DNA of 64,000 nucleotides from Ignavibacteriota bacterium (GTDB lineage: Bacteria > Bacteroidota > Ignavibacteria > Palsa-1295): the NCBI GenBank assembly GCA_963787835.1, contig CAWBEI010000002.1, forward strand, positions 640,001-704,000, given 5' to 3'. Made by a program: the position numbers and the translations under genes. Below are positions 6,801-60,303 of the stretch, piece by piece. Every line of letters starts with the position of its first letter. Within the stretch, counting starts at the first letter, position 1. The notes under the pieces were generated by a model. The model did not search any database and had not been told where the DNA came from. It was given only the letters and a program-made list of their open reading frames with translations.

Positions 6801-7520
6801 CCAAACGATCACAGAATCACCTCGCATCACGCGAGTATTTCCTGGCAATAGCACAAACGTGAATGGAGCAGGCTTCTGATAAAATGTTCGGAAATGCTCC
6901 AGACGCGATGTTGCGGCAAGCATTTCATCGCGAGCTCCTAAGAAGAACGCCGCGCCAATTGCAAGGCTCAACAGGAGAACTACTACAGATCGCTTCAACG
7001 GCCGCTCATCGACGATAGCATTGAAATCGAAACCACGAGCAACCTCATAAGTATTCGAAAATGCCGCCAGTGCAAAATTGGGCGACCCAATCGTAGCCGT
7101 GGGCTTTAGCCCACGGTCGCGGAGTTCACTCCGTGGGCTAAAGCCCACGGCTACGGGCTGCAGCGGCCTCATAAGTTGCAAGACGTTCACAAGCCGGTCG
7201 CTGACGGACGGATAATGGTTACCTATCTGCGCGGCAAGCTCATCATCAGAAGATCGCGGACGAATTCCTAATCGAACAAAGAGCGGTGGAAGTGTAAAAC
7301 CGAAAAACCCAATAACAGAAAGTAGCAAAGCCGACCAGAAAAGCCACGTTCGCCCCACAACAGGAAAATGACCGAGCATTTCCAATACAATGGCCGAAAC
7401 CGTAAGAACAACTACTACCGTCAGGCCGCTCGCGATCCCCGCGCCAAGCGCAACGGACTCCCGCCGCCGCCGAAGCGCAGCTAGACGAGAAAGGAGTTCG
7501 GTATATAATTCTTGTGCCAC
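3858..7520 (-). CDS. DUF4175-like membrane-anchored long coiled-coil protein
   Basis: 1220 aa; N-terminal TM helices, Ig-like middle (DQPPEI, RDDFG, TDNDAVTGPK), Q/E/K/M-rich coiled coil and C-terminal YNALIRKYFESL. Confidence 0.75.
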   Translation of the reverse strand: MAQELYTELLSRLAALRRRRESVALGAGIASGLTVVVVLTVSAIVLEMLGHFPVVGRTWLFWSALLLSVIGFFGFTLPPLFVRLGIRPRSSDDELAAQIGNHYPSVSDRLVNVLQLMRPLQPVAVGFSPRSELRDRGLKPTATIGSPNFALAAFSNTYEVARGFDFNAIVDERPLKRSVVVLLLSLAIGAAFFLGARDEMLAATSRLEHFRTFYQKPAPFTFVLLPGNTRVMRGDSVIVWIATRGEQLKQIHLHTREEGQKDFDAIVINAAPFDSAHVVALGSKSGFTYTIHAQHPIEYFVEARDIESDHYQISVLDHPIIRSLNVEVDPPPYTRLKPTALTENIGDIAGVTGTRGVFRIVASKALVNAEVVFNTVDSTGHVSTTNSRTFSLSIQDSIATGSVTFLQSGSYHVELLDRDSVASEHPIEYTVTISKDQPPEIILVEPSSARADLPDNERLDMLARIRDDFGFRGVRLGYRISKSKYLPTDTSYTWLTVPLSNYNTQELDVPYIWNLTPLSIGPEDEVSYVMEVTDNDAVTGPKSARTPEYTVRVPSVAEIFKRADDEANKAQRDMNEIKQDAEELQKKVDAALDEMKQMKAGDLAKQEQDFSKQKDMQQMLDRQNKLNDRIDQVAKDLQEMTQSMEQQNALSPETMKKYQELQDLFKQIDSPELKKAMDALQQAMQKNIDPKKLEQAMQNMKQNEDQFRKSIERTANILKKIQAEQKVDELMKASSELANQEQKAADDAHQKLDQGKQMTPEEKAAEARKQADAQKELDRMREEMKAVMDAMKKLPQSMQAPEETKEAAEALSDPSTDQDMEDAQQDMQQGQMQQGAQHSQSASKKMRNARQKLAELKRKMSETQRQATIREMKQIEGDLNRLSQAEEQLKNESKEAQPNSNVFRDLAEQQSEKKDELGQTASQAMQLAQKSTEVTPEMGKEMGEAFAEMQQAEDAMTSRNQQSSAQSAQQAMTALNQASNAFQKAAGKLGQQGQSGSNGSGDEGQDGEDGSGSEGQEGDQPGSGGGQGQGAMQQFIDQINKLAGQQQEMNNQMQSMMNGKGGGGQSAEKEMQRQQAELSRLAAQQQAAKKTIDQMADEQSKAQTGIHQSADELRKIADEMQESIGDMKSNGVKPETIQRQERILSRLLQAEHSVHERDKDQERESKPGENVVRASPRDLDVKSPQAQKELQEEILNAKENGFTPDYNALIRKYFESLEQK
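7092..7155. repeat. GTAG-type REP doublet inside the DUF4175 CDS
   Basis: Perfect 25-bp inverted repeat CGTAGCCGTGGGCTTTAGCCCACGG with a 14-bp spacer; each arm is itself a hairpin. Confidence 0.9.
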
Positions 7521-7591
7521 GACTGAGATGAAAAGACTCTGACCAATAGCCTTATGAAACTAACTCCTTGCCTGTTCCAGCCGTTCCGTTG

Positions 7592-7720
7592 TCAGAACCG
7601 TGATTTTGGGGATTAATGGGATGAGTGGGATTTTGATCGAAGCCTTTTCGAAAATAATACTTGTTAGCATATCCTGTCCCGTCCCATAAATCCCAATAAT
7701 CCCATAAATCCCGGTTCTGA
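7592..7720. repeat. Inverted repeat element, family B (TCAGAACC..GGATT / AATCC..GGTTCTGA)
   Basis: TCAGAACCG and CGGTTCTGA ends with ~9-bp-periodic GGGAT/ATCCC motifs; relatives at 26869, 36001 and 38845. Confidence 0.75.
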
Positions 7721-7736
7721 TCCGTATTTTTGCAGC

Positions 7737-9077
7737 ATGAACATCGATCTCCTCGAACCCGGCGCGCCTCCGGGGCTTAACGTGCTCGTCGTTGCCTACT
7801 ATTTCCCACCGATGGGACTCAGTGGCGTGCAGCGAACGATGAAGTTCGTAAAGTACCTGCCGGATTTCGGCTGGCGTCCCATTGTGCTCACCGCCGGTGA
7901 AACACCGTACTACGCCCATGACGATTCCCTCCTCGACGAACTCAGCCCTCTTGTGGATACCGGCTATGTCCGCATTGTTCGGACAGAAGCAAGCGGTGCC
8001 CCGGCGGCAACGTTAGCAAAGAAGGAAGGGAAATCCCTCAAGCTTCCGACGGCACGGTATCAGAGGCTTCGCTCGAAACTGATTCAAACAGTGTATCAGC
8101 CAGATAGCCGCATCAAATGGAAACACCCGGCGCTCCAGGCTGCGGAACAGATCTTTGCAGAAGAGCGCATCGATGCTATTCTGGCAACCGCGCCGCCTTA
8201 CACCGACTTTCTCATTGCGACCGAACTTTCCAAACGGCATAACGTGCCGTTCCTTATGGATTACCGCGATGCATGGGTTTCGAATCCGGTGCTGAATTTC
8301 TACGCAACTCCTTTTCACAAAGCGTATGCTCGTAAGCTGGAAGATGAATGCCTCCGCGCCTCGAACGCCATCACAGTAGCCAGCCGCGCAATGAAAGAGG
8401 TGCTGCTGAAAAACTATAATTTTCTCAATCATGATGAAGTGACGATCATCACGCATGGGTTCGATCCCGAAGATCTGGATAAAGCCTCCGGCCTTATGGA
8501 TAACTATCGCAGTCCCGACAAATTTCGCATGACATACGGCGGTGCGTTTTATGTGGGGCGTTCACCCATCCCTTTTTTCGAAGCCGCACGGATCGCAATC
8601 GAACAGGAACCGGATCTTGGGAATGATCTCGAACTTGTGTTTGCCGGTATCTTGCAAAGTGAATATGTGCGCGCAGCGCAGAAAATGGGTTTGGAAAACA
8701 ATGTGGTGACTACAGGATATTTACCACACATCGAAGACCTTGCGCTGCTGCTTGCAAGTGATGTGTTGTGGATGACGATGTCGGATACCATCAGCGCACC
8801 CGGCAAGCTTTACGAGTATTTCGGCACGCACAAACCGGTTCTCGGGCTCGTGCCACCTGGAAGCCAGGCCGACAAACTCCTGAATGATTATGGCGCGGGG
8901 ATCTCGGTGGCGCCAAAAGATATACATGCCATCGCTGATGTGATTCTCGATCTCTATCGCCGGTGGCGTAAATCGCTTCTGCCCAAAAATATCAATCTTC
9001 CATTCGTCCAGTCGTTTGACCGGCGGATGCTTACCAAAGAAATGGCGAAGCAGTTAGGGCTGATGTTGAGCCCATAA
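7737..9077 (+). CDS. Glycosyltransferase family 4 protein
   Basis: VVAYYFPPMGLSGVQRTMKFVKYL, MDYRDAW and PGKLYEY motifs. Confidence 0.88.
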   Translation: MNIDLLEPGAPPGLNVLVVAYYFPPMGLSGVQRTMKFVKYLPDFGWRPIVLTAGETPYYAHDDSLLDELSPLVDTGYVRIVRTEASGAPAATLAKKEGKSLKLPTARYQRLRSKLIQTVYQPDSRIKWKHPALQAAEQIFAEERIDAILATAPPYTDFLIATELSKRHNVPFLMDYRDAWVSNPVLNFYATPFHKAYARKLEDECLRASNAITVASRAMKEVLLKNYNFLNHDEVTIITHGFDPEDLDKASGLMDNYRSPDKFRMTYGGAFYVGRSPIPFFEAARIAIEQEPDLGNDLELVFAGILQSEYVRAAQKMGLENNVVTTGYLPHIEDLALLLASDVLWMTMSDTISAPGKLYEYFGTHKPVLGLVPPGSQADKLLNDYGAGISVAPKDIHAIADVILDLYRRWRKSLLPKNINLPFVQSFDRRMLTKEMAKQLGLMLSP

Positions 9078-9151
9078 TGGGCTTTTTACAGAATGTCGAT
9101 CAATAGGTGTCGATGCGGAGCCATGAGCGCATCCCGGCTGTTAAGCACGTG

Positions 9152-10522: not shown

Positions 10523-11020
10523 ACCGAATGTCAGTGGTTCGTTTTACATTCATTGTTGCAGCACTCTTTTCCTTTGGCCTCTCTGAAGCTCATTCGGACT
10601 CAGCTTATGTCCCTCCGCGGCCAGCGTTCGCCGGAATTCATGTTGGGATGCCGGAGGATTCGGCATATCTGATCATGAAACGGATCGCATTGCGGCGCGA
10701 CACCCTTTCCGCCGATTCTGTCATCTTGCTCGAATCAGATTCGGTGAGGATCTTCGGGCAGGCAGCGTACCTGCAATTGCAGATCCTGCATCATAAAGTA
10801 CGAACCATCGTCATCAATTGGTACTCCCTCGGCGGCGATGGCTATACCGGACTCCGAGACGTTCTGCTATCCTATTTGGAGCGTTATTTCGGACATGGAA
10901 TTGTCTTCACCGATGAGAACCCTGACCTACCATCGCTGGGAAACGGAAGATGGCACGAGCGAAGTCTCCCACTCTGACAAATATTTACGCATTTTCGTCC
11001 GGCTCGGAAAGCCACGGTAA
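10519..11020 (+). pseudogene. Exported hypothetical protein with apparent +1 frameshift near 10918
   Basis: ORF 10519-10977 loses protein-like character after GIVFTDE. The overlapping frame continues TLTYHRWETEDGTSEVSHSDKYLRIFVRLGKPR, and removing one A from GATGAGAACC joins the two. Confidence 0.55.
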
Positions 11021-11449
11021 AATTTCTTTACGGTTTTACGGTCTCATCCCAAATTATCCATTTCATAGTTTGGCACCGGAACTTGCAATAGGACGACTTA
11101 AAAAAATACAGAATTGCATAAAACTGACATTGGTTGTTAAAACTGGGATTGCGAAGACCAGCTGTTTTTGAAAAAACTGAAAACTATTATTCATGATTGC
11201 GTTATAATCGCTTCATGAACTATGCAGATTTTGTTCCATATTGTAAATAATCCGGATCTCAGTTCCTATTGAAAGTATTGAGTCGGAGCCCCGAGAACGA
11301 AAAACTAGAAAACGTTTTCATCATCGAGGCTTGATGAATGCTTGTTCAAACGTTCATGAACTACACCCGGCCTCGTCAAAAGATAGTTTCAGTTGGCACG
11401 ATACTGATATTCTGTCGATGTGGTAATGTCAGTAAGAACGGGAAAGGCA

Positions 11450-12753: not shown

Positions 12754-13689
12754 GTGAACATATTAGTAACGGGCGGTGCAGGATTTATTGGGTCGCACAT
12801 TGTCGATGCCTTCGTCGGGCGCGGCGATGCCGTCGTGGTGCTCGATAATATGAGTGCTGGCCGTATGGAGAATCTTAATCCCGAAGCAGAATTTATCGAG
12901 GGAGATATTACCGATCGGGTACTCGTTAGGCGTCTTTTTCGCGAGCACCGATTCGAGATCGTGAATCATCACGCTGCACAACTCGATATTCGCAAAAGCG
13001 TTGCCGATCCTGTGTTCGATGCACAGCAAAATATCATCGGCTCACTGAATTTGCTCGAAGCCTCGAAAGAGACCGGAAGCGTAAAGCGGTTCATGTTCGC
13101 TTCGACCGGTGGTGCTGTTTATGGCGAACAGGAATATTTCCCAGCCGATGAAAAACACCCCACACAACCGATTGCCCCCTACGGAGTAGCAAAACGGAGT
13201 ATCGAATTGTATTTACATTATTATTATTCAATTCATGGGATACCGTATGTAGCGTTCCGGTACACGAATGTATATGGCCCTCGGCAAAGTCCCCACGGGG
13301 AGGCTGGAGTAGTAGCCATCTTCGCTGAACGATTATTGAATGGCGAGGCTGCGGTCATCAATGGCGATGGCAAGCAAACACGGGATTACGTTTATGTAGG
13401 AGATGTCGTCCGCTCGCACCTTCTCGCACTCGATACTTTAAACAGCTCCGACATTTTCAACATCTCGACTGCAAAAGAAACAGACGTCAATGAGATCTTC
13501 AATGTCCTAAGTGAACTCACAACGAACGGCAAAGCGACGCCTCAATATGGCCCCGCTAAAGCCGGCGAGCAGCAGCGCAGCATGTGCAGTTATGACCATG
13601 CAAAACAAATCCTCGGATGGGAGCCAGAGACTTCGCTTACTGAAGGCCTGCGTGAAACGGTAGAGTTCTTCAAGCGTAAACCTGTTTAA
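12754..13689 (+). CDS. NAD-dependent epimerase/dehydratase (UDP-glucose 4-epimerase-like)
   Basis: ILVTGGAGFIGSH, STGGAVYG, YGVAK and NVYGPRQ; AAGGAG RBS before GTG 12754. Confidence 0.9.
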   Translation: MNILVTGGAGFIGSHIVDAFVGRGDAVVVLDNMSAGRMENLNPEAEFIEGDITDRVLVRRLFREHRFEIVNHHAAQLDIRKSVADPVFDAQQNIIGSLNLLEASKETGSVKRFMFASTGGAVYGEQEYFPADEKHPTQPIAPYGVAKRSIELYLHYYYSIHGIPYVAFRYTNVYGPRQSPHGEAGVVAIFAERLLNGEAAVINGDGKQTRDYVYVGDVVRSHLLALDTLNSSDIFNISTAKETDVNEIFNVLSELTTNGKATPQYGPAKAGEQQRSMCSYDHAKQILGWEPETSLTEGLRETVEFFKRKPV

Positions 13690-13790
13690 GTAATAAGTAA
13701 GAGGTAAGAAGTAAGAATTAATCGGGCTTGGTCAAAACAAAAATGCGCTCTTTTTTTATTACCTCTTACCTCTTACTTATTACCTGTTAC
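13690..13790. repeat. Inverted heptamer arrays (GTAAGAR x4 / YTCTTAC-like x5) straddling a start codon
   Basis: 13690-13717 gtaataa gtaagag gtaagaa gtaagaa; 13756-13790 ttattac ctcttac ctcttac ttattac ctgttac. Confidence 0.85.
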
Positions 13791-15521
13791 CTCCTTACGA
13801 GTTGCGCGTCCCAGCAGCCTCCGCCAGGAGGACCGGTTGATACTACCCGGCCCAAGATTGACTCCGTGATGCCCCGGCATCGCCAGCTTAACGTTCCAAC
13901 CGATACGAAGCTGTATTTTCAATTCGAACGCGATGTGGATCAGTCCACCTTCGCAACTGCGTTTTCGATGACGCCGTATTTGAACGGTACGCCGAAGTTC
14001 CGATGGTCGGGCCGCAATGAAGTAACCATCACCCCGGCCACGCGTCTGAAAGATTCCACAACCTATACCGTTCAGCTTACCCGCGATCTAAAAACAAGTC
14101 TCGTAAATGGAACTGGCAGCCAGCTCGCAGCGCCGTTTTTTCTCACGTTCTCGACCGGCCCCGTTATCGATACCGGTATGCTTTCGGGATATTTGCTGAC
14201 TCCGATAAAATCCCAACCGATGAAACCAAGCGACCTGTTCATCTTTGCCTATGACATGTCAATACCTCATGCGGACACACTGAACTTTGCACACACACCT
14301 CCCGATCAACTAACGCAGCCCAACGATCAGGGCGTCTGGCAATTTTTAGCGATGAAAGTCGGCCACCGATACCGCGTGTTTGCGGTCGGGGATGTCTATC
14401 GGAACAAGGTATATGATGCCGGAGTCGATGCCTATGGCATACCGGCGGGAGATGTTACACTCGATAGTGTCGTCAAATCTGGGATCTATATTCGCATGTC
14501 ACCGGCGACCGATACGATCAAGCCGGAATTGCAGGACGTTGAAGTGGTCGATTCATTCCATATCCGAGCTCACTTTTCTGAACCGATCGATAGTCAGGAC
14601 GTTCATGCCCACAACTTTATTCTACACAGCGCTCCCCCTCCTAAAGAAGGAGGGGCCTGGGGGGTGGTCGCTGCCTTCCGTGAAAATCCAGAAAAGCATC
14701 CAAGCCAGATCACGCTTGTCACTTCCACTCCTCTAACGCCGAACCACGAATACACGCTGGAAGCGATTCGCGACAGCATCCACGATCTTTCCCATAATCC
14801 CCTCAGCGATTCGGCCCATAAAGTTACCTTTACCACGCCGCAGGAACTACGATCGCCCACACCTCCAAAATTCATTACGATGTCGCTTCGCGATAGCATC
14901 AAAGACATTTCTCAGTTGCCCTCGTTTCCTATCTCCTTCACGGATGCTGTGAATAAAGATTCCGCCGAACATGCCTTTACCATTACCGATACGGGGCACC
15001 ACTCCGTTCCCGCACTATTCCATTGGAACGACGATGCGAAAGTTTCTATGCGGCCTGCGGACAGCTTGGGTTCGAATGAGTTCTATCTGGTAACGGTCCG
15101 TTTGGGCAATATTCGGAGCGCGCTCACTCAAATTCCGGGCGTTGCAAAAGATACCGTGCTTCATTTCCATTTCAGGGCCGCGAATAACAGGGACTTCGGT
15201 ACCATCGGCGGGACAATTTCGATTGCGGATTCCTTCTTTGCCCGATCACCCAAAAGCGCATTAGTAGTGCAGGTGATGCAAAACGGGAATATTCTTACCG
15301 ATCAAAAGATACTTCCGCATGGCGAGCGGAAATTTCAATTCGATCAAATCCCAACTTCCACGTATCGCATTCGTGCGTTCCTTTCAGGGGATGGGAGCGG
15401 AACATACGATCCCGGTTCGGTCCAGCCCTGGCGTTTCGGAGTTCCCACCGGCGAGTACCCCAAACCATTCGATACACGCCCCCGCTGGACGATTCCCAAT
15501 ATTGATTTTGAAGTGAAATAG
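13743..15521 (+). CDS. Ig-like (Big_5) domain lipoprotein
   Basis: Lipobox LTSC followed by ASQQPPPGGPVDTTRP; repeated Big_5-like domains (YTVQL, FSTG, FSEPID). Confidence 0.8.
   Translation: MRSFFITSYLLLITCYLLTSCASQQPPPGGPVDTTRPKIDSVMPRHRQLNVPTDTKLYFQFERDVDQSTFATAFSMTPYLNGTPKFRWSGRNEVTITPATRLKDSTTYTVQLTRDLKTSLVNGTGSQLAAPFFLTFSTGPVIDTGMLSGYLLTPIKSQPMKPSDLFIFAYDMSIPHADTLNFAHTPPDQLTQPNDQGVWQFLAMKVGHRYRVFAVGDVYRNKVYDAGVDAYGIPAGDVTLDSVVKSGIYIRMSPATDTIKPELQDVEVVDSFHIRAHFSEPIDSQDVHAHNFILHSAPPPKEGGAWGVVAAFRENPEKHPSQITLVTSTPLTPNHEYTLEAIRDSIHDLSHNPLSDSAHKVTFTTPQELRSPTPPKFITMSLRDSIKDISQLPSFPISFTDAVNKDSAEHAFTITDTGHHSVPALFHWNDDAKVSMRPADSLGSNEFYLVTVRLGNIRSALTQIPGVAKDTVLHFHFRAANNRDFGTIGGTISIADSFFARSPKSALVVQVMQNGNILTDQKILPHGERKFQFDQIPTSTYRIRAFLSGDGSGTYDPGSVQPWRFGVPTGEYPKPFDTRPRWTIPNIDFEVK
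14633..14669. repeat. CCCCTCCT..AGGAGGGG..GGGGTGG hairpin (family D) inside CDS
   Basis: 8-bp stem plus G-rich tail, read in frame as PPPKEGGAWGVV. Confidence 0.6.
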
Positions 15522-15565
15522 AGACGGAAGAATCTTTCCTCGATTATTCTCATTATTCTATTATT

Positions 15566-15814
15566 ATGATGAATCTTGGACCATACCCGCATATCGCCTT
15601 AGACCCGAAGATCTGCGGCGGCGCACCGTGTATTGCTGGTACACGCATTCCCGTTCGAACCATCGGCTCCTATGTGCAAATGGGAATTTCGCCAGACGTC
15701 TTGATCCAAGATTATTACCCGTGGCTCACGAAAGCAGAAGTGTTTGCTGCACTTGCCTACTATTATGACCATCTTCCTGAGGTCGAGGCTATAGATATCG
15801 TAGAAGCTGTATAG
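15566..15814 (+). CDS. DUF433 antitoxin
   Basis: IALDPKICGGAPCIAGTRIPV and LTKAEVFAALAYY. Confidence 0.9.
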   Translation: MMNLGPYPHIALDPKICGGAPCIAGTRIPVRTIGSYVQMGISPDVLIQDYYPWLTKAEVFAALAYYYDHLPEVEAIDIVEAV

Positions 15815-15823
15815 TCTCAAACG

Positions 15824-16153
15824 ATGACACTGCCAGCCTTACTGCTCGATGAAAACATTCCCTACGGTTTGCAACGGGCGTTGCGGCAAAGAGGCTGGGA
15901 TGTCGTGCATGTGAAGGACATTGGAATGCGTAGCGCCAGCGACCCCGAAGTGCTTGATGCAGGCATTCGCTCCAATAGAGTCATACTCACGTATAATATT
16001 GGTGATTTCACTCGATTGGATGAGTTATTACGAAATGCAAATCGTCCGCATCCCGGCATTCTTGTTTCCGTTGAACGTGCGATCGGAGATTTGGTGGATA
16101 GGTTAGAACACTTTGACTTCTCGCAAATTGATTCTACATTTAGGCATCTGTAA
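15824..16153 (+). CDS. DUF5615 PIN-like toxin
   Basis: LLLDENIP, SDPEVL, RVILTYNIGDF and HPGIL; directly after DUF433. Confidence 0.88.
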   Translation: MTLPALLLDENIPYGLQRALRQRGWDVVHVKDIGMRSASDPEVLDAGIRSNRVILTYNIGDFTRLDELLRNANRPHPGILVSVERAIGDLVDRLEHFDFSQIDSTFRHL

Positions 16154-16175
16154 GATGCCCGACTGACTTTTAACT

Positions 16176-17654
16176 ATGTCTAGCCCACCCCTTAAACGCG
16201 CGCTCGGTCTTTACGCTACGACAGCCCTCGTCATCGGCTCGGTCGTGGGATCGGGAATTTTTTCATCTCCATCACAGATGGCGCGCGATCTGCCAAGCGC
16301 GCCGTATCTGATGGGGGTGTGGGTGCTCACCGGTATCCTGACACTCTTCGGCGCGTTCACGCAATGCGAACTTGTCGGACAAATGCCCAAGACTGGCGGA
16401 CTCTACGAATACTTCCGCGAAGTCTATGGTGAAGGACTCGGCTTTCTCTATGGATGGGCAAATTTTATGATCGCCGGAAGCGGAGCAATCGCGGCGATTA
16501 GCTTTTTCTTCGCACAGTATTTCGAGAATTTTACCGCGCTGCCACATTTTACGCACGCACTAACATTTCTTGGAGTGACCGAGGATACGCCATGGAATAT
16601 CCCGCTGCTCGGCGCCATTTTTCCCTATCAATTCTTGGGAAGGAAGTTAGTTGCATCGTTCCTCGTGGTGTTTCTGACAGCGCTAAATGTTCGAGGAGTA
16701 AAGCTTGGCGGAACAGTGCAAAGCATCTCGACCACAGCAAAAATGCTTGCCATTCTTGCCATCGTGCTTGTGGCATTCATTGCTGGATCGCATGTGGGTT
16801 CAACAGCTAATTGGAGCCATGCAGGAACCGCCGGCACATCACTGATCGGCTGGCCGCTTATTGGCGCTATTGCTCTTGCAATGTCCGGAGCATTCTGGTC
16901 CTATGATGGATGGGGAAATGCGGCATACATTGCTGGTGAAGTGCGCGAGCCACAAAAGATCATTCCTCGCGCTATCATTCTTGGTACGCTTACATTCATC
17001 GGACTCTATCTCGTCGTTAACCTTGCCTACTTCTATATCCTTTCTGTCGGAGGCGTTGCAAATGCACCCGGCGACCGCGTGGCTTCGCAAATGGTTTTCG
17101 CTGTTGTCGGATCCGGAGGCGCTGGAATTATAGCCGTTATTATGATGCTCTCGGCGTTCGATACTACAAACTCCACTGTGCTGACCAACGCCCGCGTGTA
17201 TTATGCCATGGCGCGCAACGGACTGTTTTACCGCAAGAGCGAGGAAGTTCACAAGAAATTCCAAACTCCGCATATTGCCTTATTTTTGCAGGGTGGGTGG
17301 TCTATTATTCTGCTTGTGACGGGATCCTTCGATCTTATCGTCAGCATGTATGTGTTCGTCAATTGGGTACTGTATGCGCTGATGGCGATCGCTGTTTTTA
17401 TCCTGCGCAAACGCAGGCCCAGTGCGGAGCGTCCATTTTCGGTGCCGGGATATCCGTGGGTTCCCGCGATCTTTGTGCTGTTTGCAAGCGCGTATGTTAT
17501 CATTACGCTTGTGACGGATATTCAGGCATATCAGGCCGGAACCCAGCCACTCATCCGCAGCGTGACCGGCATGGCGCTGGTGCTAACGGGATTGCCGTTC
17601 TATTATTATTGGCGATGGAAACGACGAAAGAAGTTGATAGTGGATAACGGATAG
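16176..17654 (+). CDS. APC-family amino acid permease
   Basis: GSVVGSGIF, PKTGGLY, WSYDGW and ARVYYAMA; many TM helices. Confidence 0.9.
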   Translation: MSSPPLKRALGLYATTALVIGSVVGSGIFSSPSQMARDLPSAPYLMGVWVLTGILTLFGAFTQCELVGQMPKTGGLYEYFREVYGEGLGFLYGWANFMIAGSGAIAAISFFFAQYFENFTALPHFTHALTFLGVTEDTPWNIPLLGAIFPYQFLGRKLVASFLVVFLTALNVRGVKLGGTVQSISTTAKMLAILAIVLVAFIAGSHVGSTANWSHAGTAGTSLIGWPLIGAIALAMSGAFWSYDGWGNAAYIAGEVREPQKIIPRAIILGTLTFIGLYLVVNLAYFYILSVGGVANAPGDRVASQMVFAVVGSGGAGIIAVIMMLSAFDTTNSTVLTNARVYYAMARNGLFYRKSEEVHKKFQTPHIALFLQGGWSIILLVTGSFDLIVSMYVFVNWVLYALMAIAVFILRKRRPSAERPFSVPGYPWVPAIFVLFASAYVIITLVTDIQAYQAGTQPLIRSVTGMALVLTGLPFYYYWRWKRRKKLIVDNG

Positions 17655-17727
17655 TGGAAAGTTTGGAAATCTTGCTGCCCAAATCTTCTTTATCCACTCT
17701 CCGTTATACACCATACACTATCAACTA
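17634..17727. repeat. Inverted heptamer arrays (TGGATAG-like / CTATCCA-like)
   Basis: 17634-17661 ttgatag tggataa cggatag tggaaag includes the permease stop; 17690-17724 ttatcca ctctccg ttataca ccataca ctatcaa. Confidence 0.75.
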
Positions 17728-18486: not shown

Positions 18487-20526
18487 TTGAATTTAATTCA
18501 ATTTGAACTTGAAAGTTTTGCATGTCATTCTGAGCGAAGCAAAACGGAGCGACAGCGGGGTTTTGCGAAGTCGAAGAATCTTTTGCACGCGCCGAGATCC
18601 TTCGACTCCGTTCGCCACTCCTTCGTCAGGGCGAACTCCGCTCAGGATGACATCAGTAAGATAATCGAATATAAATTGTCCTGCTACTGTAATCCTGGAT
18701 TTGGAATCTCGACCACAGCACACGGTGCTCTGCTGTTGTTCCTTGTGTTCAGCGCTATGAGTTGCACCACACCCGAAATGAAGCCGCTCATTTGCCCGCC
18801 GCCGCCTCAGCCGGTGTGCAATCCGGGAACGTTCGATAAAACATTACTGGATACGGTATATCATGGGGCCGGAATAGAGCAATTGCATATTACGATGCTT
18901 CCCTCCCCTGCAAACAGCCCAGAGGACGATTATGCGATGACGTTCATTCCGAATCCATCAGGCCCTCTTGCGCTCATCACCAGCGATAGGAATAATGCGG
19001 AGAACTACCATTCCGGCGGACGAACCCAGAGGCTTTTTTCTTCACGCGTTTATTCGACAACTCGTTTCGGCCCGATGTATCCTGTTCAGGGCGCAGATAA
19101 CATTCTGCCTGCGGGAACTGCATTTTACTCCAAAGCAGACGGTCTTCTCTATTTTTCCGCGAAAGCGCCGAACGAGGACCCCGACGATTACGATCTCTAC
19201 ACTGCATCTGTAACCATCAAGGGAGACGAAGTTACGATTTCCAACATACAGCCACTGAGCAAGCTCAATGCCGATGGACATTTCGATAGCCAGCCTGCGC
19301 TGGACGCAACCGGAACACATATCTATTTCGTCAGCGACCGGCCGGGCGGAGATGGAGGAACGGATATTTGGTATTCCGAACGCACCAGTGCAACCTCGAA
19401 TGACTGGATCGCGCCACAACCATTGCCGGAACCAGTAAACTCAGCCTGCGATGAGCTATCCCCCTTCATTCTTGCCTCCGATCCCAATACGCTCTACTTC
19501 GCGTCGAACGGTCACGAAACCGTCGGCGGATACGATCTTTTCAAGACGCATATTGCGAATGGCAGATATTCCGTGCCGGAGAATTTAGGCAAGCCGATCA
19601 ATACTCCATCCGATGAAGTGTTCCCATCGGCATTGAACGATACAGCGTTCTTCTGGTCCTCGAACGCGCCTGCAATGATGGGTGGAATGAATCTTTATAC
19701 GATCACGCGTACGCTTATCCCACTCCTTGCTGCGCATGGAGAGGTCTCTCCGCCAGGCCGCGTCGAGCCAAATCATTTGCGCGTTGATACCACACAGCCA
19801 GCACAGGAAGCTGTTGCACCGACATCTCCTACTCCGGCAACCCCTGTTACTCCGGCTTCAATGCCCCCGCTTCTTGGGCCAATCGAGATCATAACGCATG
19901 TCACTCGCGGCATGGATAACCGTCCGGCTATCGGTGCGGATATTTATGTACACCAAGATTCACTGGAACTCTATCGCGGGCTGATCCCCGAAACAGGAAT
20001 GATCGGTTTCAAAGTGAACCGCGAGGCAGAATATGATGTGGGCGCAGAAACGCCGGATGCGTTCTTCGATGTCAAGCATGTCGATCTGCGTGGCTTTAAA
20101 GATTCCATTATAAACGTCTATCTGCATTTGCCGGACACCCTTGTTATCCGCATTAATTTCCCCTTTGACGATTACCAGCACCCTTATGATTATACCATCG
20201 ACGATCACGGCGAACCTTCCTCGATGACGTGGCAACAGGCGCTTGACCTGACCGCGCATTCGGCAATTCGTTCGCTGTCGAAACTAAAAGAATTGCTGCT
20301 GATCGGCAATACCGATTCGCTGGGAACCGATGCGTACAATAACCGGCTCGGCCTCGAACGCGCAACGTTCGTTGCGAATGAATTGGAACGACGCGGGGTT
20401 CCGAAAGAAATAATTCGCGTGGCTTCCGAAGGCAGAACCGAGCCGGTAGCACGCCGTCCTGACGAATCCGATGAAATTTTCCGCCTGCGATCACGGAGGG
20501 TGGAATTTATTAAGGTGTTTCAGTAA
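18487..20526 (+). CDS. PD40 beta-propeller + OmpA C-terminal lipoprotein (start uncertain)
   Basis: Lipobox-like FSAMSC; PD40 motifs (YFVSDRPGGDGGTDIW, LYFASNGH); OmpA motifs (GNTDSLG, YNNRLGLERA, RRVEF). The N-terminal extension reads through a family A repeat. Confidence 0.8.
   Translation: MNLIQFELESFACHSERSKTERQRGFAKSKNLLHAPRSFDSVRHSFVRANSAQDDISKIIEYKLSCYCNPGFGISTTAHGALLLFLVFSAMSCTTPEMKPLICPPPPQPVCNPGTFDKTLLDTVYHGAGIEQLHITMLPSPANSPEDDYAMTFIPNPSGPLALITSDRNNAENYHSGGRTQRLFSSRVYSTTRFGPMYPVQGADNILPAGTAFYSKADGLLYFSAKAPNEDPDDYDLYTASVTIKGDEVTISNIQPLSKLNADGHFDSQPALDATGTHIYFVSDRPGGDGGTDIWYSERTSATSNDWIAPQPLPEPVNSACDELSPFILASDPNTLYFASNGHETVGGYDLFKTHIANGRYSVPENLGKPINTPSDEVFPSALNDTAFFWSSNAPAMMGGMNLYTITRTLIPLLAAHGEVSPPGRVEPNHLRVDTTQPAQEAVAPTSPTPATPVTPASMPPLLGPIEIITHVTRGMDNRPAIGADIYVHQDSLELYRGLIPETGMIGFKVNREAEYDVGAETPDAFFDVKHVDLRGFKDSIINVYLHLPDTLVIRINFPFDDYQHPYDYTIDDHGEPSSMTWQQALDLTAHSAIRSLSKLKELLLIGNTDSLGTDAYNNRLGLERATFVANELERRGVPKEIIRVASEGRTEPVARRPDESDEIFRLRSRRVEFIKVFQ
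18522..18653. repeat. Palindromic element, family A
   Basis: ATGTCATTCTGAGCG...CGCTCAGGATGACAT; 3' half nearly identical to that of 1653-1787. Confidence 0.9.
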
Positions 20527-26868: not shown

Positions 26869-26976
26869 TCAGAACCTGGATTACACGGATTGGATGGATT
26901 ACGCGGATGGGTAATTTTTGTCATCCTGAGCGAAGTTCATTCGACCGAAGGGAGAATGAACGTAGTCGAAGGGTCT
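26869..26976. repeat. Adjacent half-elements of family B (26869-26908) and family A (26919-26976)
   Basis: TCAGAACCTGGATTACACGGATTGGATGGATTACGCGGAT followed by TGTCATCCTGAGCGAAG...GTCGAAGGGTCT. Confidence 0.8.
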
Positions 26977-26995
26977 CTGGCTCGACAAGGAATTA

Positions 26996-38474: not shown

Positions 38475-38545
38475 GTAGCACCGGCGTCCTCGCCGGTCCC
38501 CCTTCCGACACGCGACCGGGGAACAGGCGAGGACGCCTGCGCTAC
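38475..38545. repeat. GTAG-type REP doublet (intergenic)
   Basis: GTAGCACCGGCGTCCTCGCCGGT ... ACAGGCGAGGACGCCTGCGCTAC; each arm is a hairpin. Confidence 0.85.
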
Positions 38546-38560: not shown

Positions 38561-38829
38561 TTTTCGATTATTTTCGTGAAATGCTTGCATTCGGGTTTTT
38601 GTCGCCATATATTAGGGATTGCTTTGATGAGCACCCTTTTTCAATTACGAATTAAGAGTTGGGGAAGGCTCGTATGTTCACTGAAAATTGAGATGGAATA
38701 GATTTCTTGGAGAAATTAATGAACAATTACTTTAAAGTAAAATATAGTTCATTAAATGACAATTCAGTTGCGTTTAATGGGCACCAATGTCTTGAAGAAA
38801 CAAATGTTGAAATTGGCTCAATTTCGAGG
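38561..38829 (+). other. Promoter-bearing repeated element, copy 1
   Basis: TTGCAT-17-TATATT (38585-38613); colinear similarity blocks shared with the reverse complement of 58533-58795. Confidence 0.6.
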
Positions 38830-38844: not shown

Positions 38845-38944
38845 GAACCTGGATTACGCGGATTGGATGGATTACACGGATAGTTCGCTGCCAATGCACC
38901 ATCCGCGTAATCTCCCCAAATTATCCTCGTAATCCAGGTTCTGA
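38845..38944. repeat. Inverted repeat element, family B
   Basis: GAACCTGGATTACGCGGATTGGATGGATTACACGGAT...ATCCGCGTAATC..GTAATCCAGGTTCTGA. Confidence 0.85.
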
Positions 38945-38997: not shown

Positions 38998-40779
38998 ATG
39001 TCAAATACCAACGGAAAAGCAACAATGAATGGGCAGGCGCCGAGGTCGGCGCCCACCTCGCAGTCTTTTGAGCAAAGCAAGGAATACCAGGAAGCGTATC
39101 TGCTCTGGAAAGCCAAAGCGGAGGCGAGTCCCGAGACCGGGATGAAGTTCACCACGCTTTCGGGGAAGGCGCTGGAGACGGTGTATGCTCCGACCGGCAA
39201 TGGGGCGGACCCTTCGACAAGCTCAGGGCAGGCTCCGCGCAGCACGTCGCTACAAGATCCGAGCGCGTTCATTGAAAATATTGGTTTTCCGGGGCAGTTC
39301 CCATACACAAGGGGAATCCATCCGAATGGTTACCGTGGAAAGATCTGGACGATGCGGCAGTTCGCGGGATTCGGCACGCCGGAAGATACGAACGAGCGGT
39401 TCAAATATCTGCTTGCGCATGGGCAGACGGGGCTTTCCACCGCATTCGATCTGCCGACGCTCATGGGCCGCGATGCCGATGACCCGTGGAGCGAAGGCGA
39501 AGTAGGCATTTGTGGCGTAGCGATCAGTTCGCTCAAAGATATGGAGACGCTTTTTTCCGGCATCCCGCTGGATAAAGTTTCCACTTCGATGACGATCAAT
39601 TCGCCCGCGGCGATGATCTTTGCATACTACTTATGCGTGGCGGAACAGCAGGGCGTCCCCTTCAACAAACTGCGCGGAACGTTGCAGAACGATATTCTGA
39701 AAGAGTATATCGCACAAAAGGAGTTTATTTATCCGCCGGAACCATCGATGCGTATCATCACGGATATGATCGAGTTCTGCACGGCGGAAGTTCCGCAGTG
39801 GAATCCTGTTTCGGTGTCGGGCTATCATATTCGCGAGGCCGGCTCGACGGCTGCGCAGGAACTGGCTTTCACGCTCGCCGATGGCTTTTGCTATGTCGAG
39901 CATTGTATCGCGCGCGGGATGGATGTGGATGAATTTGCGCCTAGGCTATCGTTCTTTTTCAATTCGCATATCGACTTTTTCGAGGAGATCGCGAAGCTGC
40001 GGGCTGCGCGTAGAATTTGGGCCAGACGTTTGAAGGAGAAGTATGGAGCGAAGAGCGCGAAATCGCTTTCGCTACGGTTCCATACGCAGACAGCGGGATG
40101 TTCACTGACTGCTCAGCAGCCGGAGAACAATATCGTCCGCACGGCTTATGAAGCATTGGCCGGAGTGCTGGGCGGTACGCAATCGCTGCATACCAATTCG
40201 ATGGATGAAACGCTGGCGCTGCCAAGCGAGAAAGCAGTCAAGATCGCGCTGAGGACGCAGCAGATCCTGGCATACGAAACAGGCGTTATCAATACGGTCG
40301 ATCCGCTCGGAGGCTCATATTTTATCGAGTCAGAAACAGATCGTCTTGAACGCGAAGCCAATGCCTACTTCGATCAGATCGATGCACTAGGCGGCGTGAT
40401 ACCAGCGATCGAAGCGGGATTTTTCCAGCGAGAAATTGCGGACGCGGCGTACCGCTACCAGATCGAGCTCGATAAGAAAGAGAAGTTCATCGTTGGCGTG
40501 AACGAGTTCATTGAAAAAGATGAGAAGATCGATATTCCGATCCTGCAAATTTCGTCGGAAGTAGAACGATCTCAGAAACAGAAACTTGCAGAAGTGAAAG
40601 CGAACCGTTCCCAAACAGCGGTGGATGAATCCATCGAGGATATTCGCGCTGCCGGGTTCGGGCATACGAATCTGATGCCGCTCTTCATCAAGGCGGCACG
40701 GAACTATGTGACGCTCGGCGAAATGGTGAATACGCTGAAAGTTCCGTTTGGGGAGTATCAGGAATCGGTGGTATTTTAG
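38998..40779 (+). CDS. Methylmalonyl-CoA mutase, substrate-binding subunit (split type, no B12-binding domain)
   Basis: [31 protein letters not shown] and [10 protein letters not shown]; no DxHxxG domain. Confidence 0.93.
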
Positions 40780-49112: not shown

Positions 49113-50294
49113 TTACTTTAAATCAATATATCTTTTTATTTCGTCTTCATTAAATCCGTATCCCCGAAGTTCCTCAGCACTGAATCCTATCAACTCGGGC
49201 TCTGTATAAAGATGAAGTCCCGTCTTTTCCTCAACGATTTCGCGTACTTCTTTCACGACGGAAAGCACTTCGTCCGCAGTTGCCTCACGCGTTACGTTCA
49301 GCACCACAACCGGCTGAGTTGGATTTAGCTGCACATTCCCACGCTGAAATCCTTTTAGCCCACATGATTCCAGGATAAAAGCCGATGGAATTTTAAGAAA
49401 GGATGAAGGATGAGGGTTGAGGGATGAAGGGACGTATTTTAAAAGCCGTTCGATTTGTTCTGGAATATTCCTTTCGAAATGATCGCGGAGATTTTCGAAT
49501 TGTTCCAGCGATATTATAGAATTCTTGAAGAACGATCCCGCATTCCCTTCGACCGACTCTGCGGGAAATGGGAATTTCCTGTCACGTATGGTTTTGATCG
49601 CTTCACGAATTTCTCTGAGCGATGGCTCGGGATTTTCCTCAAACCATTTTTTTACATCTGGGTATGAAAGATTACGTTTGGGAGTCGTACTTAATACCAG
49701 TGTTGTGTAAAGAATGATGTAACGATTTTTCTCGGTGGTATTGAAGATGCTTTTGCGATAACTAAACTTGCATGCTTCATTCGATAATATCTGAAGAGTT
49801 TTCGTTGTTCGGTCGAAGACCTCTACATTCACCAGCACATCTTTGATTTCCTGCCCGTACGCCCCAACATTTTGCACGGCGACAGCTCCTGCCCTTCCTG
49901 GAATTCGCGAGAGGTTCTCTATTCCCCAAAACTCATGTGATACGGCAAATTTTACCACATCATCCCAAACTTCGCCAGAGGCAATTCGCAGTGTAGCGCA
50001 CATCGTAGGCGATGCTTCTTCAGTTTGCGATCCCGGCGCGGAGTCACAAACTAAAGTTTGCGCTACAATTCCACGATTCGCAATATGAATAACCAACCCA
50101 TCGAACCCTCGGTCACTTACAAGCATATTGCTCCCTCCGCCGAGGATGAGCACTGGCAAATTTTGGAATTCTGCAAACTCGAATGCCTCGCTAAGTTGGG
50201 CAGGATCGGTAATTTCGAAAAAATATCGTGCAGGGCCGCCAATCTTGAAGGTGGTGAGCGGTTTTAGGGGGCGGTTTTGTTCGATGGGAAGCAA
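49113..50294 (-). CDS. murB: UDP-N-acetylmuramate dehydrogenase with two repeat-derived insertions
   Basis: TTFKIGGPA, LGGGSN, IPG..GA..VQNVGAYG, FSYRKSIF and NAGSFFKN. Confidence 0.92.
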   Translation of the reverse strand: MLPIEQNRPLKPLTTFKIGGPARYFFEITDPAQLSEAFEFAEFQNLPVLILGGGSNMLVSDRGFDGLVIHIANRGIVAQTLVCDSAPGSQTEEASPTMCATLRIASGEVWDDVVKFAVSHEFWGIENLSRIPGRAGAVAVQNVGAYGQEIKDVLVNVEVFDRTTKTLQILSNEACKFSYRKSIFNTTEKNRYIILYTTLVLSTTPKRNLSYPDVKKWFEENPEPSLREIREAIKTIRDRKFPFPAESVEGNAGSFFKNSIISLEQFENLRDHFERNIPEQIERLLKYVPSSLNPHPSSFLKIPSAFILESCGLKGFQRGNVQLNPTQPVVVLNVTREATADEVLSVVKEVREIVEEKTGLHLYTEPELIGFSAEELRGYGFNEDEIKRYIDLK

Positions 50295-55332: not shown

Positions 55333-55366
55333 CCATGATTTATAGGATTTTGCTTATTTCTCGTTC

Positions 55367-56401: not shown

Positions 56402-56420
56402 AAAGTTTTTCATTTAGTCT

Positions 56421-57761: not shown

Positions 57762-58451
57762 GTGATCGCTCGCCAAAATACATTCCTCACTCCCGAACTG
57801 GTGCTCGATGCGTACCGCCAAGGACTGTTCCCAATGGCCGATGCGCGTGGCGCAATCAGTTTCTATGCCTACGACCCACGAGGCATTATTCCACTCGATG
57901 ATCGATTCACCGTTCGTCGTTCCCTGCGTCATGTTTTAGAAAAAAAGAATTTTCGCGTTACATTCGATACCGCTCCGCTCGAAATCCTGCGTGGCTGTGC
58001 CCGCTTCGAAGAGAACATTCCCCCTGAGGAACGATGGCTCACCGAAGAACTCATCGAGCTGTATCTAAAGCTCTTTGAACTAGGTTACATGCACACCGTC
58101 GAAGTTTGGGGCATAATGGATAGTGGAAAGTGGATAGAGGATAACAAAGAGTTACCATCCGAACACCAGCCACCCACCGTCAACTATCCACTATCAACTA
58201 CCCTGATCGGTGGACTCTATGGCCTCACCTTCGGCGCGGCATTTTGTGGCGAGTCGATGTTCTCCCGCGCCCCTTACGCCTCACAGATAGCTCTGGTGTA
58301 CCTCGTCGAGCGGCTGCGCAGAAAAGGCTTCCAACTGCTCGACGCCCAAATGCCAAGCGAGCATCTCCAGCAATTCGGACTCTACGAATGCTCGCAGGAG
58401 CAGTATCTTCCGTTATTCCAAACCGCCGCAAAAATGGATGTAAAGTGGTGA
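57762..58451 (+). CDS. aat: Leucyl/phenylalanyl-tRNA--protein transferase with repeat-derived insertion
   Basis: AYRQGLFPM, DPRGII, HTVEVW, GGLYG, FCGESMFS and LLDAQ. Confidence 0.92.
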   Translation: MIARQNTFLTPELVLDAYRQGLFPMADARGAISFYAYDPRGIIPLDDRFTVRRSLRHVLEKKNFRVTFDTAPLEILRGCARFEENIPPEERWLTEELIELYLKLFELGYMHTVEVWGIMDSGKWIEDNKELPSEHQPPTVNYPLSTTLIGGLYGLTFGAAFCGESMFSRAPYASQIALVYLVERLRRKGFQLLDAQMPSEHLQQFGLYECSQEQYLPLFQTAAKMDVKW

Positions 58452-58532
58452 GCAATCACTCTATTTCCTATCCCAATTTATTGTCTACAAGAAATAGGTG
58501 CCATTTCTTTTTCTTGCTGAGTTCCCGACTAC

Positions 58533-58795
58533 CCTCGAATTTAGGCCAAATTCGCCATTTGAGGCAAAAGTTATTCACAATTCACTTTCGCGAAGAACTC
58601 GTTCATAACGAAAGCTGCCTTCCCCTCTATTTTCAATGAACTCCCCATTCTTCCCTGATCCCGAAAATCTGTAAATCGAGGTCCATCTTTCATACTTCAT
58701 CTTTCATCTTTTCCCCCGAGGGTGCCCATCACAGTAGATACTAATATACGCACATTATATCCAGAAGTCAAGTGTTTTCCGAAAATAATCGAAAT
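58533..58795 (-). other. Promoter-bearing repeated element, copy 2
   Basis: Minus-strand TTGACT-17-TATATT; blocks shared with 38561-38829. Confidence 0.6.
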
Positions 58796-59206
58796 TTATC
58801 GATTTGGAGGAAGCCATTCAACCTTGACGCCACGATGTTCCACATTCTCGAACTCTCGATCTCCGGTGAGGATTGGAGTGTCGCGTTCCAGTGCGAGCGC
58901 GGCAGCAAAACAATCGGCATACGACAGGCCGCCATCTGCTTTTAATCGAGCAGCAGAGATCATAACATCGAAACCCGGCATGATAACTTCTATAGGAAGG
59001 GAGCGGATGGTCGCCCGTATTTCCTCGGCTGCACGCTCACCTTTCCTCCGTAGAACAGTGTAATACACTTCGCCAAAATTAATCCCTGAAAGTAAGTGGA
59101 AGTAACCGCCATTGGCGGCGTTATCGAGATGGTTGAGGACGATCCCCGAACCCGTTTGATTCAGGAAAAGAGTGAGGAGAGAAAAACTATCGAGGATGAA
59201 GATCAT
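58796..59206 (-). CDS. vapC: VapC PIN-domain toxin
   Basis: FILDS, INFGEVYY, LSYADCFA and ILTGDREF. Confidence 0.9.
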   Translation of the reverse strand: MIFILDSFSLLTLFLNQTGSGIVLNHLDNAANGGYFHLLSGINFGEVYYTVLRRKGERAAEEIRATIRSLPIEVIMPGFDVMISAARLKADGGLSYADCFAAALALERDTPILTGDREFENVEHRGVKVEWLPPNR

Positions 59207-59486
59207 GGTCCTCCCGGTTTCGTTCGACCTTTTTTTCTTCGAGATAGGAGTCGAACATGGACTTGTCAGTGCCAAGGAGTCCAACGGACTTCTGTATGGC
59301 TTCTTTCATCCGGTCGAGTTCTGGTGATAGTGCTGGCATTTTTATGATAATTTCAGATTCCCGATCCTCGATCATTACCTTAGAACCAGTGTGAAGCCCA
59401 TGCCGCGATCTCACGGGGTCCGGAAGATCGAGATGACCTTGGGAATCGATGATTGATTCATAAGCTCTGTCCATAGTTAAGTCCAA
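59187..59486 (-). CDS. AbrB/MazE-fold antitoxin
   Basis: IDSQGHLDLPDPVRSRHGLHTGSKV; overlaps the vapC start. Confidence 0.8.
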   Translation of the reverse strand: MDLTMDRAYESIIDSQGHLDLPDPVRSRHGLHTGSKVMIEDRESEIIIKMPALSPELDRMKEAIQKSVGLLGTDKSMFDSYLEEKKVERNREDHDLHPR

Positions 59487-59523
59487 CCACCGCTGTGGGG
59501 CAGTAGTTCATTCATATTTCCCA

Positions 59524-59561
59524 CTTCTTACTTCTTACCTCTTACCTCTTACTTCTTACCT
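59524..59561. repeat. Heptamer array CYTCTTA x5
   Basis: cttctta cttctta cctctta cctctta cttctta; same family as 13690-13790. Confidence 0.85.
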
Positions 59562-59574
59562 CGGCGAAGCCGGA

Positions 59575-59612
59575 AACCACCTCCGATACCGTAATAAGCT
59601 TCATGACTTCTT
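59575..59612. repeat. Direct-repeat copy of the GT9 3' end (partner at 60310-60348)
   Basis: AACCACCTCCGATACCGTAATAAGCTTCATG identical over 31 bp, then ACTTCTT after a 1-nt indel. Confidence 0.9.
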
Positions 59613-59628
59613 GGAGCGATTCCTTTCA

Positions 59629-59654
59629 ATTTGTTGTAATATGTTACAACAAAT
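59629..59654. promoter_or_regulatory. Probable higBA operator
   Basis: Perfect 11-bp arms ATTTGTTGTAA-tatg-TTACAACAAAT abutting the higB ATG. Confidence 0.65.
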
Positions 59655-59940
59655 GCATATCATCACTCGGAAGCGCCTTAACGAGTTTGTCGAGAGACAT
59701 CCGGATGCCTTCACGGGTTTCGATGAATGGTACCGCAAGGCCAAGCGAGCAAAATGGCAAAATTTTGCCGAGCTTAAGGCGACGTTCGGCTCCGCAGATC
59801 TGGTCGGAAGATATATTGTCTTTAATATCGGCGGCAATAAATTTCGACTCATTGCAAGCCTCCGATACCAACGGCAGAAAGTATATATCAGAGCATGCTT
59901 AACGCATAAGGAATACGATGAAAACAAATGGAAAGACTAA
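59653..59940 (+). CDS. higB: HigB toxin
   Basis: MHIITRKRL, TFGSADLV, VFNIGGNKFRLI and THKEYD..KW. Confidence 0.92.
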   Translation: MHIITRKRLNEFVERHPDAFTGFDEWYRKAKRAKWQNFAELKATFGSADLVGRYIVFNIGGNKFRLIASLRYQRQKVYIRACLTHKEYDENKWKD

Positions 59941-60223
59941 ATTAAAATCCGAGAGTAGTGCCGTCATGGCATGGACTCCGTCCTCGCACATCATCAATGT
60001 TCCCGCAAACGAAGCAGAGTACAATGAATTAGTTGCCGTGCTCGATTATTTGCTCGACACCAGCGATCCCGATGAACAAAGCCCGGCCGCTGCGTTAGTG
60101 GATATGATCGGCTCACTCATCGAAAGCTACGAGAACGCAAACGTGCCCGAACTTTCAGCTCCCCGCCGCAAAAGCCGCGCACATCGCCCCATCATTACTC
60201 CTCGCCAATTTAAAGCAGCTTAA
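59918..60223 (+). CDS. HigA-like antitoxin N-domain, lacking a recognisable HTH
   Basis: NEAEYNELV..LDYLLD..LIESYE matches the HigA toxin-binding half; the protein ends in a basic tail. Confidence 0.65.
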   Translation: MKTNGKTKLKSESSAVMAWTPSSHIINVPANEAEYNELVAVLDYLLDTSDPDEQSPAAALVDMIGSLIESYENANVPELSAPRRKSRAHRPIITPRQFKAA

Positions 60224-60240
60224 GGTGCGTCCTCCCCAAT

Positions 60241-60303
60241 TTATAATTCATACTTCATAATTCATACTTCATAATTCATACTTCATAATTCATACTTCAT
60301 AAT
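60241..60303. repeat. Heptamer array (TCATAAT/TCATACT alternating, 9 units)
   Basis: Direct reading; encodes the GT9 C-terminus IMKYEL and its stop on the minus strand. Confidence 0.9.

Follow-up and report, generated by a model that had tools for sequence, protein, structure and literature searches.

How do several unrelated families of dispersed repeats come to lie in frame within intact protein-coding genes, and what becomes of the proteins concerned? The question is raised by a 64 kb stretch of DNA (here called the window; G000:C2:640001-704000) of an uncultured soil Ignavibacteriota bacterium whose genome, G000, comprises 3.57 Mb in 7 contigs; near-identical DNA occurs in soil metagenome contigs. 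A sequence-only reading of the window had listed ten in-frame sites and ascribed them to one multi-family process that writes new loops, termini and signal peptides. We find the in-frame segments to be copies of repeats from no fewer than three unrelated families, namely repetitive extragenic palindromic (REP) elements of the GTAG type, CCCCTC hairpins and inverted pairs of heptamer arrays, all of which also form the inverted ends of cassettes around small genes. This is borne out by the pairing of repeats with cargo genes, by the states of orthologous junctions, by the absence of inserts from orthologs, by different families at one and the same loop, by the nesting of repeats and by a bias in reading frame.

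Repeat copies within the genes of the window

The ten listed sites comprise six internal in-frame copies, one signal-peptide core, two cases of terminal codons plus a stop, and one unconfirmed palindrome (Table 1). The gene names of the hosts are upheld by Pfam and NCBIfam, and the open reading frames (ORFs) of all of them stay open through the repeat sites. The DUF4175 doublet at 7092-7155 has perfect arms of 25 nucleotides (nt) and folds with a z of -9.8 relative to shuffles; it is present in 2 of 12 aligned rows of the genus, G000 and G006. Folds at 14625, 39195 and 58105 are unremarkable against shuffles (z of -0.9, +1.4 and -1.8). In the Big_5 lipoprotein, the pyrimidine arm at 13756-13798 encodes the h-region, or hydrophobic core, of the signal peptide. 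The mini-palindrome of the mutase insert at 39201-39255 has 7 genomic copies at up to 2 mismatches, and the same composite, a mini-palindrome in a GTAG REP, recurs at C4:103769. The listing did not stand at three places. At 17634 and 60241 the repeats give termini only; the purine arm at 17632-17726 supplies the permease with just ~6 codons (LIVDNG) and a stop, the array being mostly intergenic. For the palindrome at 39036 the genome yields no other copy at up to 4 mismatches in 27 nt, and its segment varies across the genus; for want of such a copy we reject it for now as a member of a repeat family.

The inserts of DUF4175, Big_5 and murB at 49993 are not assembly artefacts, because DNA contigs of run X5, a ~90%-identical relative from a separate study, span them with too few gap letters to be without them. 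At 49394-49519 the murB segment of X5 is 12 nt shorter, which is the ancestral length.

Table 1. Repeat-related features of the window, with loop inserts elsewhere in the genome in the last row
Feature	Position	Strand	Context
IS200-type Y1 transposase cassette	3203..3858	-	gene 3296-3745 between 45-nt inverted arms
GTAG REP doublet	7092..7155	-	in frame in DUF4175 gene (VAVGFSPRSELRDRGLKPTAT), in place of a ~6-residue loop
Inverted heptamer pair	13687..13798	+	across the upstream gene's stop and the Big_5 start
CCCCTC (BoxC-like) hairpin	14631..14668	+	in frame in Big_5 (APPPKEGGAWGVV)
Inverted heptamer pair	17632..17726	+	between permease and bshB1
CGTC-type (family A) doublet	18523..18652	.	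open frame 5' of probable OmpA/PD40 start; called intergenic
GTAG doublet	38475..38545	.	intergenic; its family internal in 11/33 matches
Nonamer inverted pair	38845..38941	.	intergenic; gene-less form of GxxExxY cassette arms
Short palindrome	39030..39056	+	mutase N-terminus; unconfirmed as repeat
Nested insert	39201..39255	+	in mutase; 21-nt mini-palindrome inside decayed GTAG REP
Single pyrimidine heptamer arm	49399..49423	-	murB loop 2 (SLNPHPSSF), in place of a shorter ancestral segment
GTAG doublet + mini-palindrome	49993..50068	-	murB loop 1 (VAQTLVCD...ASPTMCAT)
Inverted heptamer pair	58113..58200	+	in aat; 31-residue loop at beta-hairpin turn, 4 residues in close relatives
Heptamer array	60238..60304	-	first ~19 nt = last ~6 codons (IMKYEL) and stop of GT9; remainder intergenic
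Type-IX-like loop inserts	C2:328258, C2:548614, C3:287571, C4:103794, C4:143078, C4:144897		repeat matches

In the window, copies of the CGTC palindrome proper stand between genes (1655-1785, 18523-18652 and 26919-26979). A long intergenic element resembling a MITE (a miniature transposable element with inverted repeats) occurs at 58491-58641 and 38620-38770 and is present in ~50 copies in the G000 genome; the longest of its matrices have 0 matches in 2.4 Mb of the related genome G001. The X5 contigs skip 58797-60310, which holds a PIN/antitoxin pair and another pair of small genes lying between two heptamer arrays, as well as 15520-16185, a DUF5615 pair, and we thus regard these three pairs as recent come-and-go modules. 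Protein matches to G001 point to probable frameshifts, in G000 or G001, near 10919-10956 (stretch 10919-10977) and 32048, away from repeats; run X2 has a 1-base gap at 10918.

Small genes bracketed by the same repeats

Several unrelated families each bracket a small gene of their own in this genome. We judged by eye the flanks of cargo genes, 260 nt on each side, in G000 and in 2.4 Mb of G001. In G000, all five genes for four-helix bundle proteins (PF05635) are preceded by a purine heptamer arm and followed by a pyrimidine one; nonamer arms flank the GxxExxY genes (3/3) and CCCCTC repeats the DUF559 genes (2/2), while TGTCAT-type arms stand on both sides of four of the five small GIY-YIG genes, two long GIY-YIG proteins being left out of the count. 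Flanking repeats are likewise found at 8 of 9 loci of Y1 transposases, including REP-associated tyrosine transposases (RAYTs). Two Y1 genes score above the RAYT cut-off (NCBIfam NF047646) and lie beside GTAG families 7 and 10; the window's own Y1 gene is below the cut-off and of the IS200 type. The fifth small GIY-YIG gene (C5:67020) lies between two tRNA-like copies instead of TGTCAT arms, and other members of the class have tandem small GIY-YIG copies. By eye, four of the PF05635 cassettes have protein genes on both sides and the fifth is flanked by two tRNA genes, and none was seen in rRNA among these 5 matches over the cut-off. An Rfam search gave no match except Acido-Lenti-1, listed there as a small RNA, which is one arm of the window's Y1 cassette (3814-3859).

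G001 is one of 14 same-genus genomes in the comparison set, and was compared over 2.4 of its 3.58 Mb (1290 reciprocal best hits, median identity 71%). The pairing recurs there for DUF559 (1/1), GxxExxY (2/2) and PF05635 (1/1), with evident flanks at two of four Y1 matches; the small GIY-YIG gene has no match in the 2.4 Mb. The sequence-only reading had named genes of these five kinds as flanked by such repeats in other genomes, and the pairing proves right for all of them in G000 and for four in G001. Orthologous junctions are found in several states: one holds a full heptamer cassette in G000 and a gene-less heptamer pair of 68 nt in G001, a second is empty in G001, a GxxExxY site of G001 is a collapsed remnant of 23 nt in G000, and one junction holds different families in the two genomes.

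Entry into coding DNA and turnover at protein loops

A de novo repeat search of G000 yielded 37 matrices, 33 of which were grouped and placed on the 2963 genes (86% coding) called with our own caller. After removal of weak single matches, the census holds 58 confident internal elements in 52 genes, with hosts recognised by eye that we take to be dxs, valS, glyA, tsaD, nusB, xseA and mnmE, among others. Entry into coding DNA depends on the repeat family. Matches deep within genes make up 41 of 70 for CCCCTC and 55 of 314 for GTAG, and 8 of 504 for CGTC, 5 of 195 for the nonamer, 5 of 88 for Y1 arms and 4 of 305 for the long MITE-like element. For heptamer arrays the figure is 18 of 249 against a background of 5-6; these 249 period-7 arrays compare with 6-21 for periods 5, 8, 10 and 11. 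In codon-shuffled genes, the long matrices of GTAG and CCCCTC had 0 matches, and the short matrices of these groups 0-3. The proposed colonisation of coding sequence by several families, for which a scan of intragenic against intergenic copies had been recommended, is thus upheld for GTAG, CCCCTC and heptamer repeats; family A, with ~3 of its 8 internal CGTC matches expected by chance, is rejected as a coloniser. Of six frames, a mean of 2.4 are open in CGTC elements, 4.1 in CCCCTC elements and 4.2 in nonamer matches, and stop-free frames alone are insufficient to explain the family differences because the nonamer rarely enters genes; CGTC elements are also longer (median 125 nt).

GTAG copies are short palindromes with an unpaired terminal GTAG, multi-copy and in doublets, which share one orientation in 12 of 12 internal and 37 of 39 intergenic cases, and heptamer pairs have the purine arm first in 39 of 46. 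Nested composites are common, between genes as well, and one 21-nt palindrome sits within two GTAG families. Genome-wide, mini-palindromes of 14-21 nt sit nested within loops of several larger repeat families, with no cargo gene identified for them.

Most of the segments are absent from orthologs, and the same loop may hold different repeats in related species. In aat, 3 of 15 aligned rows carry repeats of three kinds in the loop (heptamer, CCCCTC pair and another heptamer), while the turn has 4 residues in 7 of 15, including G002, G006 and G014, three genomes that a concatenated tree joins to G000 with 100% bootstrap; the repeat carriers are not grouped in the concatenated tree or in the gene tree, whose support is modest. 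Loop 1 of murB is filled in 6 of 16 rows, by GTAG, CCCCTC-type and heptamer repeats, one being a collapsed remnant. The Big_5 hairpin at 14631 is found in 2 of 16 rows, G000 and G009, and is absent from three closer relatives. Searches for related loci returned mostly distant homologs for both aat and murB; for the window's murB (49113-50294), the best matches beyond three close relatives are mostly Patescibacteria records of ~40% identity, and murB is shorter in a large part of the same family, so that a horizontal origin is possible. Against G001, 28 of the 58 elements could be anchored, the other 30 standing without an ortholog test because of the part of G001 compared, and G000 is at least 5 amino acids (aa) longer at 14 of the 28. 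At 7 of the 28 anchored sites a repeat stands at the corresponding place in G001, compared with 8 of 1402 random coding segments. A symmetric control confined to variable sites gave co-occupancy in 8 of 40 versus 31 of 1356 (odds ratio 10.7).

The inserts are predicted to be located in loops. In the AlphaFold model, the aat insert falls at a beta-hairpin turn (predicted local distance difference test, pLDDT, 48-71), and a solved Aat structure is without it; both MurB inserts lie in low-confidence loops (pLDDT 59-68 and 65). The arms of family 10 stand in the VAQT/SQTKVCAT frames in 14 of 14 cases and in neither of two further open frames, and the mini-palindrome is read as HRRRC in 0 of 17; these counts, in which a doublet contributes each of its two arms, are not independent. 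Internal copies therefore shun some open frames, which suggests, indirectly, that the inserts are translated. None of 35 split or frameshifted matches to G001 proteins falls at a repeat. Matches interrupted by an internal stop number 16, with 4 of them near repeats: 3 of these resemble gene ends and 1 is a split gene. The split gene, which in G001 encodes a single protein of 820 aa, is interrupted at C2:753100-753185 by an in-frame CCCCTC doublet whose spacer contains a TGA; this stop, at C2:753134, may reflect an insertion that failed or an erroneous base. Repeat inserts also disturb start-codon calls and alignments.

In the Big_5 signal, a pyrimidine arm is present in 9 of 16 rows, with differing units, and no array in 5 of 16. 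These five orthologs have an ordinary signal, so signal peptides are remodelled rather than created by repeats, and we reject their origin from nothing. The termini amount to trivial overlaps with stop codons. Using a heuristic signal detector, heptamer periodicity was found in 7 of 507 and 7 of 331 signal-like N-termini versus 0-3 and 0-2 after synonymous resampling, a small effect, and was not enriched in internal membrane segments (1/932 and 0/626). Inserts in one same loop were also found in 6 of 245 type-IX-like C-terminal domains; they come from two families, and probably represent two events spread by paralog duplication.

Proposed spread of the arms, and known systems

Instead of a single multi-family process, which our data do not show, we suggest at least five separate cassette systems under one selective filter. 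Their gene-less arm pairs would disperse through cutting at single-stranded hairpins followed by repair, with the cargo proteins presumably moving the arms, although cutting activity is published only for Ssn/SRM. Selection would then keep in-frame copies in tolerant loops, linkers and signal-peptide cores, and an occupied loop could be refilled by other families that replace old hairpins, perhaps with a preference for them; the nesting of repeats supports such refilling. Classic cut-and-paste is not indicated, because host codons are replaced and no target duplication was seen. The single-strand route is suggested by the cutting of single-stranded DNA by SsnA near its repeat, reported in PMC11893778, by the role of RAYT as hypothesised REP mobiliser in PMC3733652, and by the presence of comEC and dprA in G000, widespread genes that lend it weak support. 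We consider this reading, taken as a whole, to be reasonably probable. Because related species have different repeats in the same loops of their proteins, selfish DNA is likely to rewrite export signals and tolerant loops time and again. A stronger version is rather doubtful: RAYT, Ssn, DUF559, GxxExxY and four-helix systems may form a guild drawn to each other's hairpins, so that a first insert becomes a landing pad. If true, the guild would serially diversify chosen loops, export-signal cores and the type IX secretion C-terminal loop.

Several results weigh against the reading of dispersing cassette arms. Among the anchored sites, 14 of 28 are not 5 or more aa longer than in G001, and at least 3 (g721, g1885 and g2916) lack a length change and may be chance matches. 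The co-occupancy comes from a single pair of related genomes with shared ancestry, which makes its p-value (7e-6) too strong, and by automatic label the repeat class differs at only 2 of 8 co-occupied sites (3 of 7 in an earlier count). The gene trees disagree with the concatenated one, and an exchange of alleles can thus look like independent gains. The aligned orthologs show neither a clean empty site nor a target duplication, inserts replacing a few host codons, and no cargo-bearing cassette was seen within coding sequence. We know of no catalytic activity of the four-helix bundle protein, and the CGTC/GIY-YIG class, the one with published hairpin cutting, is the class that barely enters genes.

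Tolerance alone, with random insertion and recurrence at the few spare positions of each protein but no preference for hairpins, we consider unlikely. It would fit the exposed turns at which inserts lie, and the aat loop, which separate lineages gained out of a turn of 4 residues and which is lengthened at the same turn in distant homologs; it accounts less well for nested composites, common between genes as well, and for co-occupancy that keeps an odds ratio of 11 among sites with at least 8 unaligned residues (7 of 24 versus 16 of 446). An origin in place, by slippage and template switching with gene conversion from dispersed copies and no mobile element, seems to us improbable. It is in keeping with the single arm of murB loop 2, whose units differ between species, with the lack of visible target duplications, and with an element more alike than its flanks (the Big_5 hairpin is identical between G000 and G009 at 38 of 41 positions, its flanks at 115 and 121 of 150, or 77-81%), yet the units are genome-wide families in oriented pairs that also surround cargo genes, and the 25-nt GTAG arms match dispersed copies with no chance matches. 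Still more improbable is that hairpins are kept by the host as signals for mRNA stability, translation or DNA uptake, the peptides being tolerated by-products. Many intergenic copies do stand at stop codons (for the nonamer, 54 of 103), the heptamer arm at the Big_5 start is kept in 11 of 16 rows while its unit changes, and SsnA/NTS modulates Neisseria transformation according to PMC11893778; however, close relatives lack the internal inserts, and occupancy is patchy and turns over.

Orphan repeats gain candidate partner genes in one genome (BoxC-like repeats and DUF559, heptamers and four-helix bundle, nonamers and GxxExxY), and each pair is open to biochemical testing, as Ssn/SRM was. Repeat invasion of coding DNA is family-specific and recurs at the same loops, which allows the long-standing question of whether such repeats feed protein novelty to be measured in a lineage of free-living bacteria. 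In-frame REPs and Rickettsia palindromic elements (RPEs), REP ends that supply stops and the GIY-YIG pairing are known already. New here are the five systems in one genome, the family differences in coding entry and the measured, tree-checked turnover. In the literature, mostly excluding subscription papers, we found no link of flanking repeats to DUF559, GxxExxY or four-helix genes, no loop turnover across families and no heptamer-coded signals.

Systems that serve for comparison include the cyanobacterial STRR and the gene-bearing intervening sequences of 23S rRNA. In the latter, the S23p ORF is a PF05635 gene within an inverted repeat, the arrangement found here in all five cases. RPEs enter housekeeping genes in frame and are absent from orthologs, as are the inserts described here; Rickettsia RPE-4/6 are of the CGTC type, whereas the window inserts are GTAG, CCCCTC and heptamer repeats, which act like RPEs without being RPEs. 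As in REPtrons, RAYT genes are flanked by the same REP (families 7 and 10).

The idea that REPs are normally extragenic does not hold, since intragenic REPs are not exceptional in print: the accessible portion of PMC3733652 describes in-frame GTAG/CGTC REPs and RPEs, for example in Opitutus terrae and Rickettsia conorii. G000 shares with those cases the in-frame GTAG doublets in intact genes, with inserts of 20-30 aa and two per gene, the REP ends supplying stops, several families per genome, and RAYT genes flanked by REPs. As far as that portion goes, non-REP families (CCCCTC and heptamer pairs) inserting and CGTC-type repeats staying outside genes are particular to G000; sites differ there in most genes of the same function, recB of two Xanthomonas excepted, while here different families refill one and the same loop. 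Multi-family intragenic cases may be contained in the paper's full REP list.

A GIY-YIG nuclease of single-stranded DNA between NTS-like repeats (Ssn/SRM) is described in PMC11893778. Four of our five small, single-domain GIY-YIG genes similarly lie between inverted TGTCAT-type repeats; unlike the published ones, the local arms often have inserted hairpins, and they contribute little to coding inserts. The strict published SRM motif has 45 matches versus 20-26 in shuffled sequence, and adjoins only 1 of the 4 flanked genes. The CCCCTC family resembles the BoxC/PIT/TMECO triplex repeats in its CCCTC...GAGGG hairpin, G-rich tail and inverted pairs, as described in PMC4666352, where BoxC/TMECO are always intergenic in E. 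coli K-12 and have no link to mobile elements; here 41 of 70 matches lie within genes, and DUF559 genes are bracketed by the family. The BoxC consensus, CCCTCNCCC-N3-6-GGGNGAGGG, has 4 strict matches in G000, most copies being a CCCCTCC/GGAGGGG variant. Fusions of MITEs or repeats with ORFs, internally or at 5' and 3' gene ends and some with predicted transmembrane helices, also resemble our cases, although cargo pairing and loop turnover are features of G000 that the accessible parts of PMC3184786 do not contain. Finally, bacterial heptamer arrays are likewise tandem 7-mers near start and stop codons, sometimes within ORFs; the available text of PMC4679880 reports no transmission mechanism for them, whereas the arrays here form oriented inverted pairs around PF05635 genes, and their pyrimidine arm encodes the cores of signal peptides.

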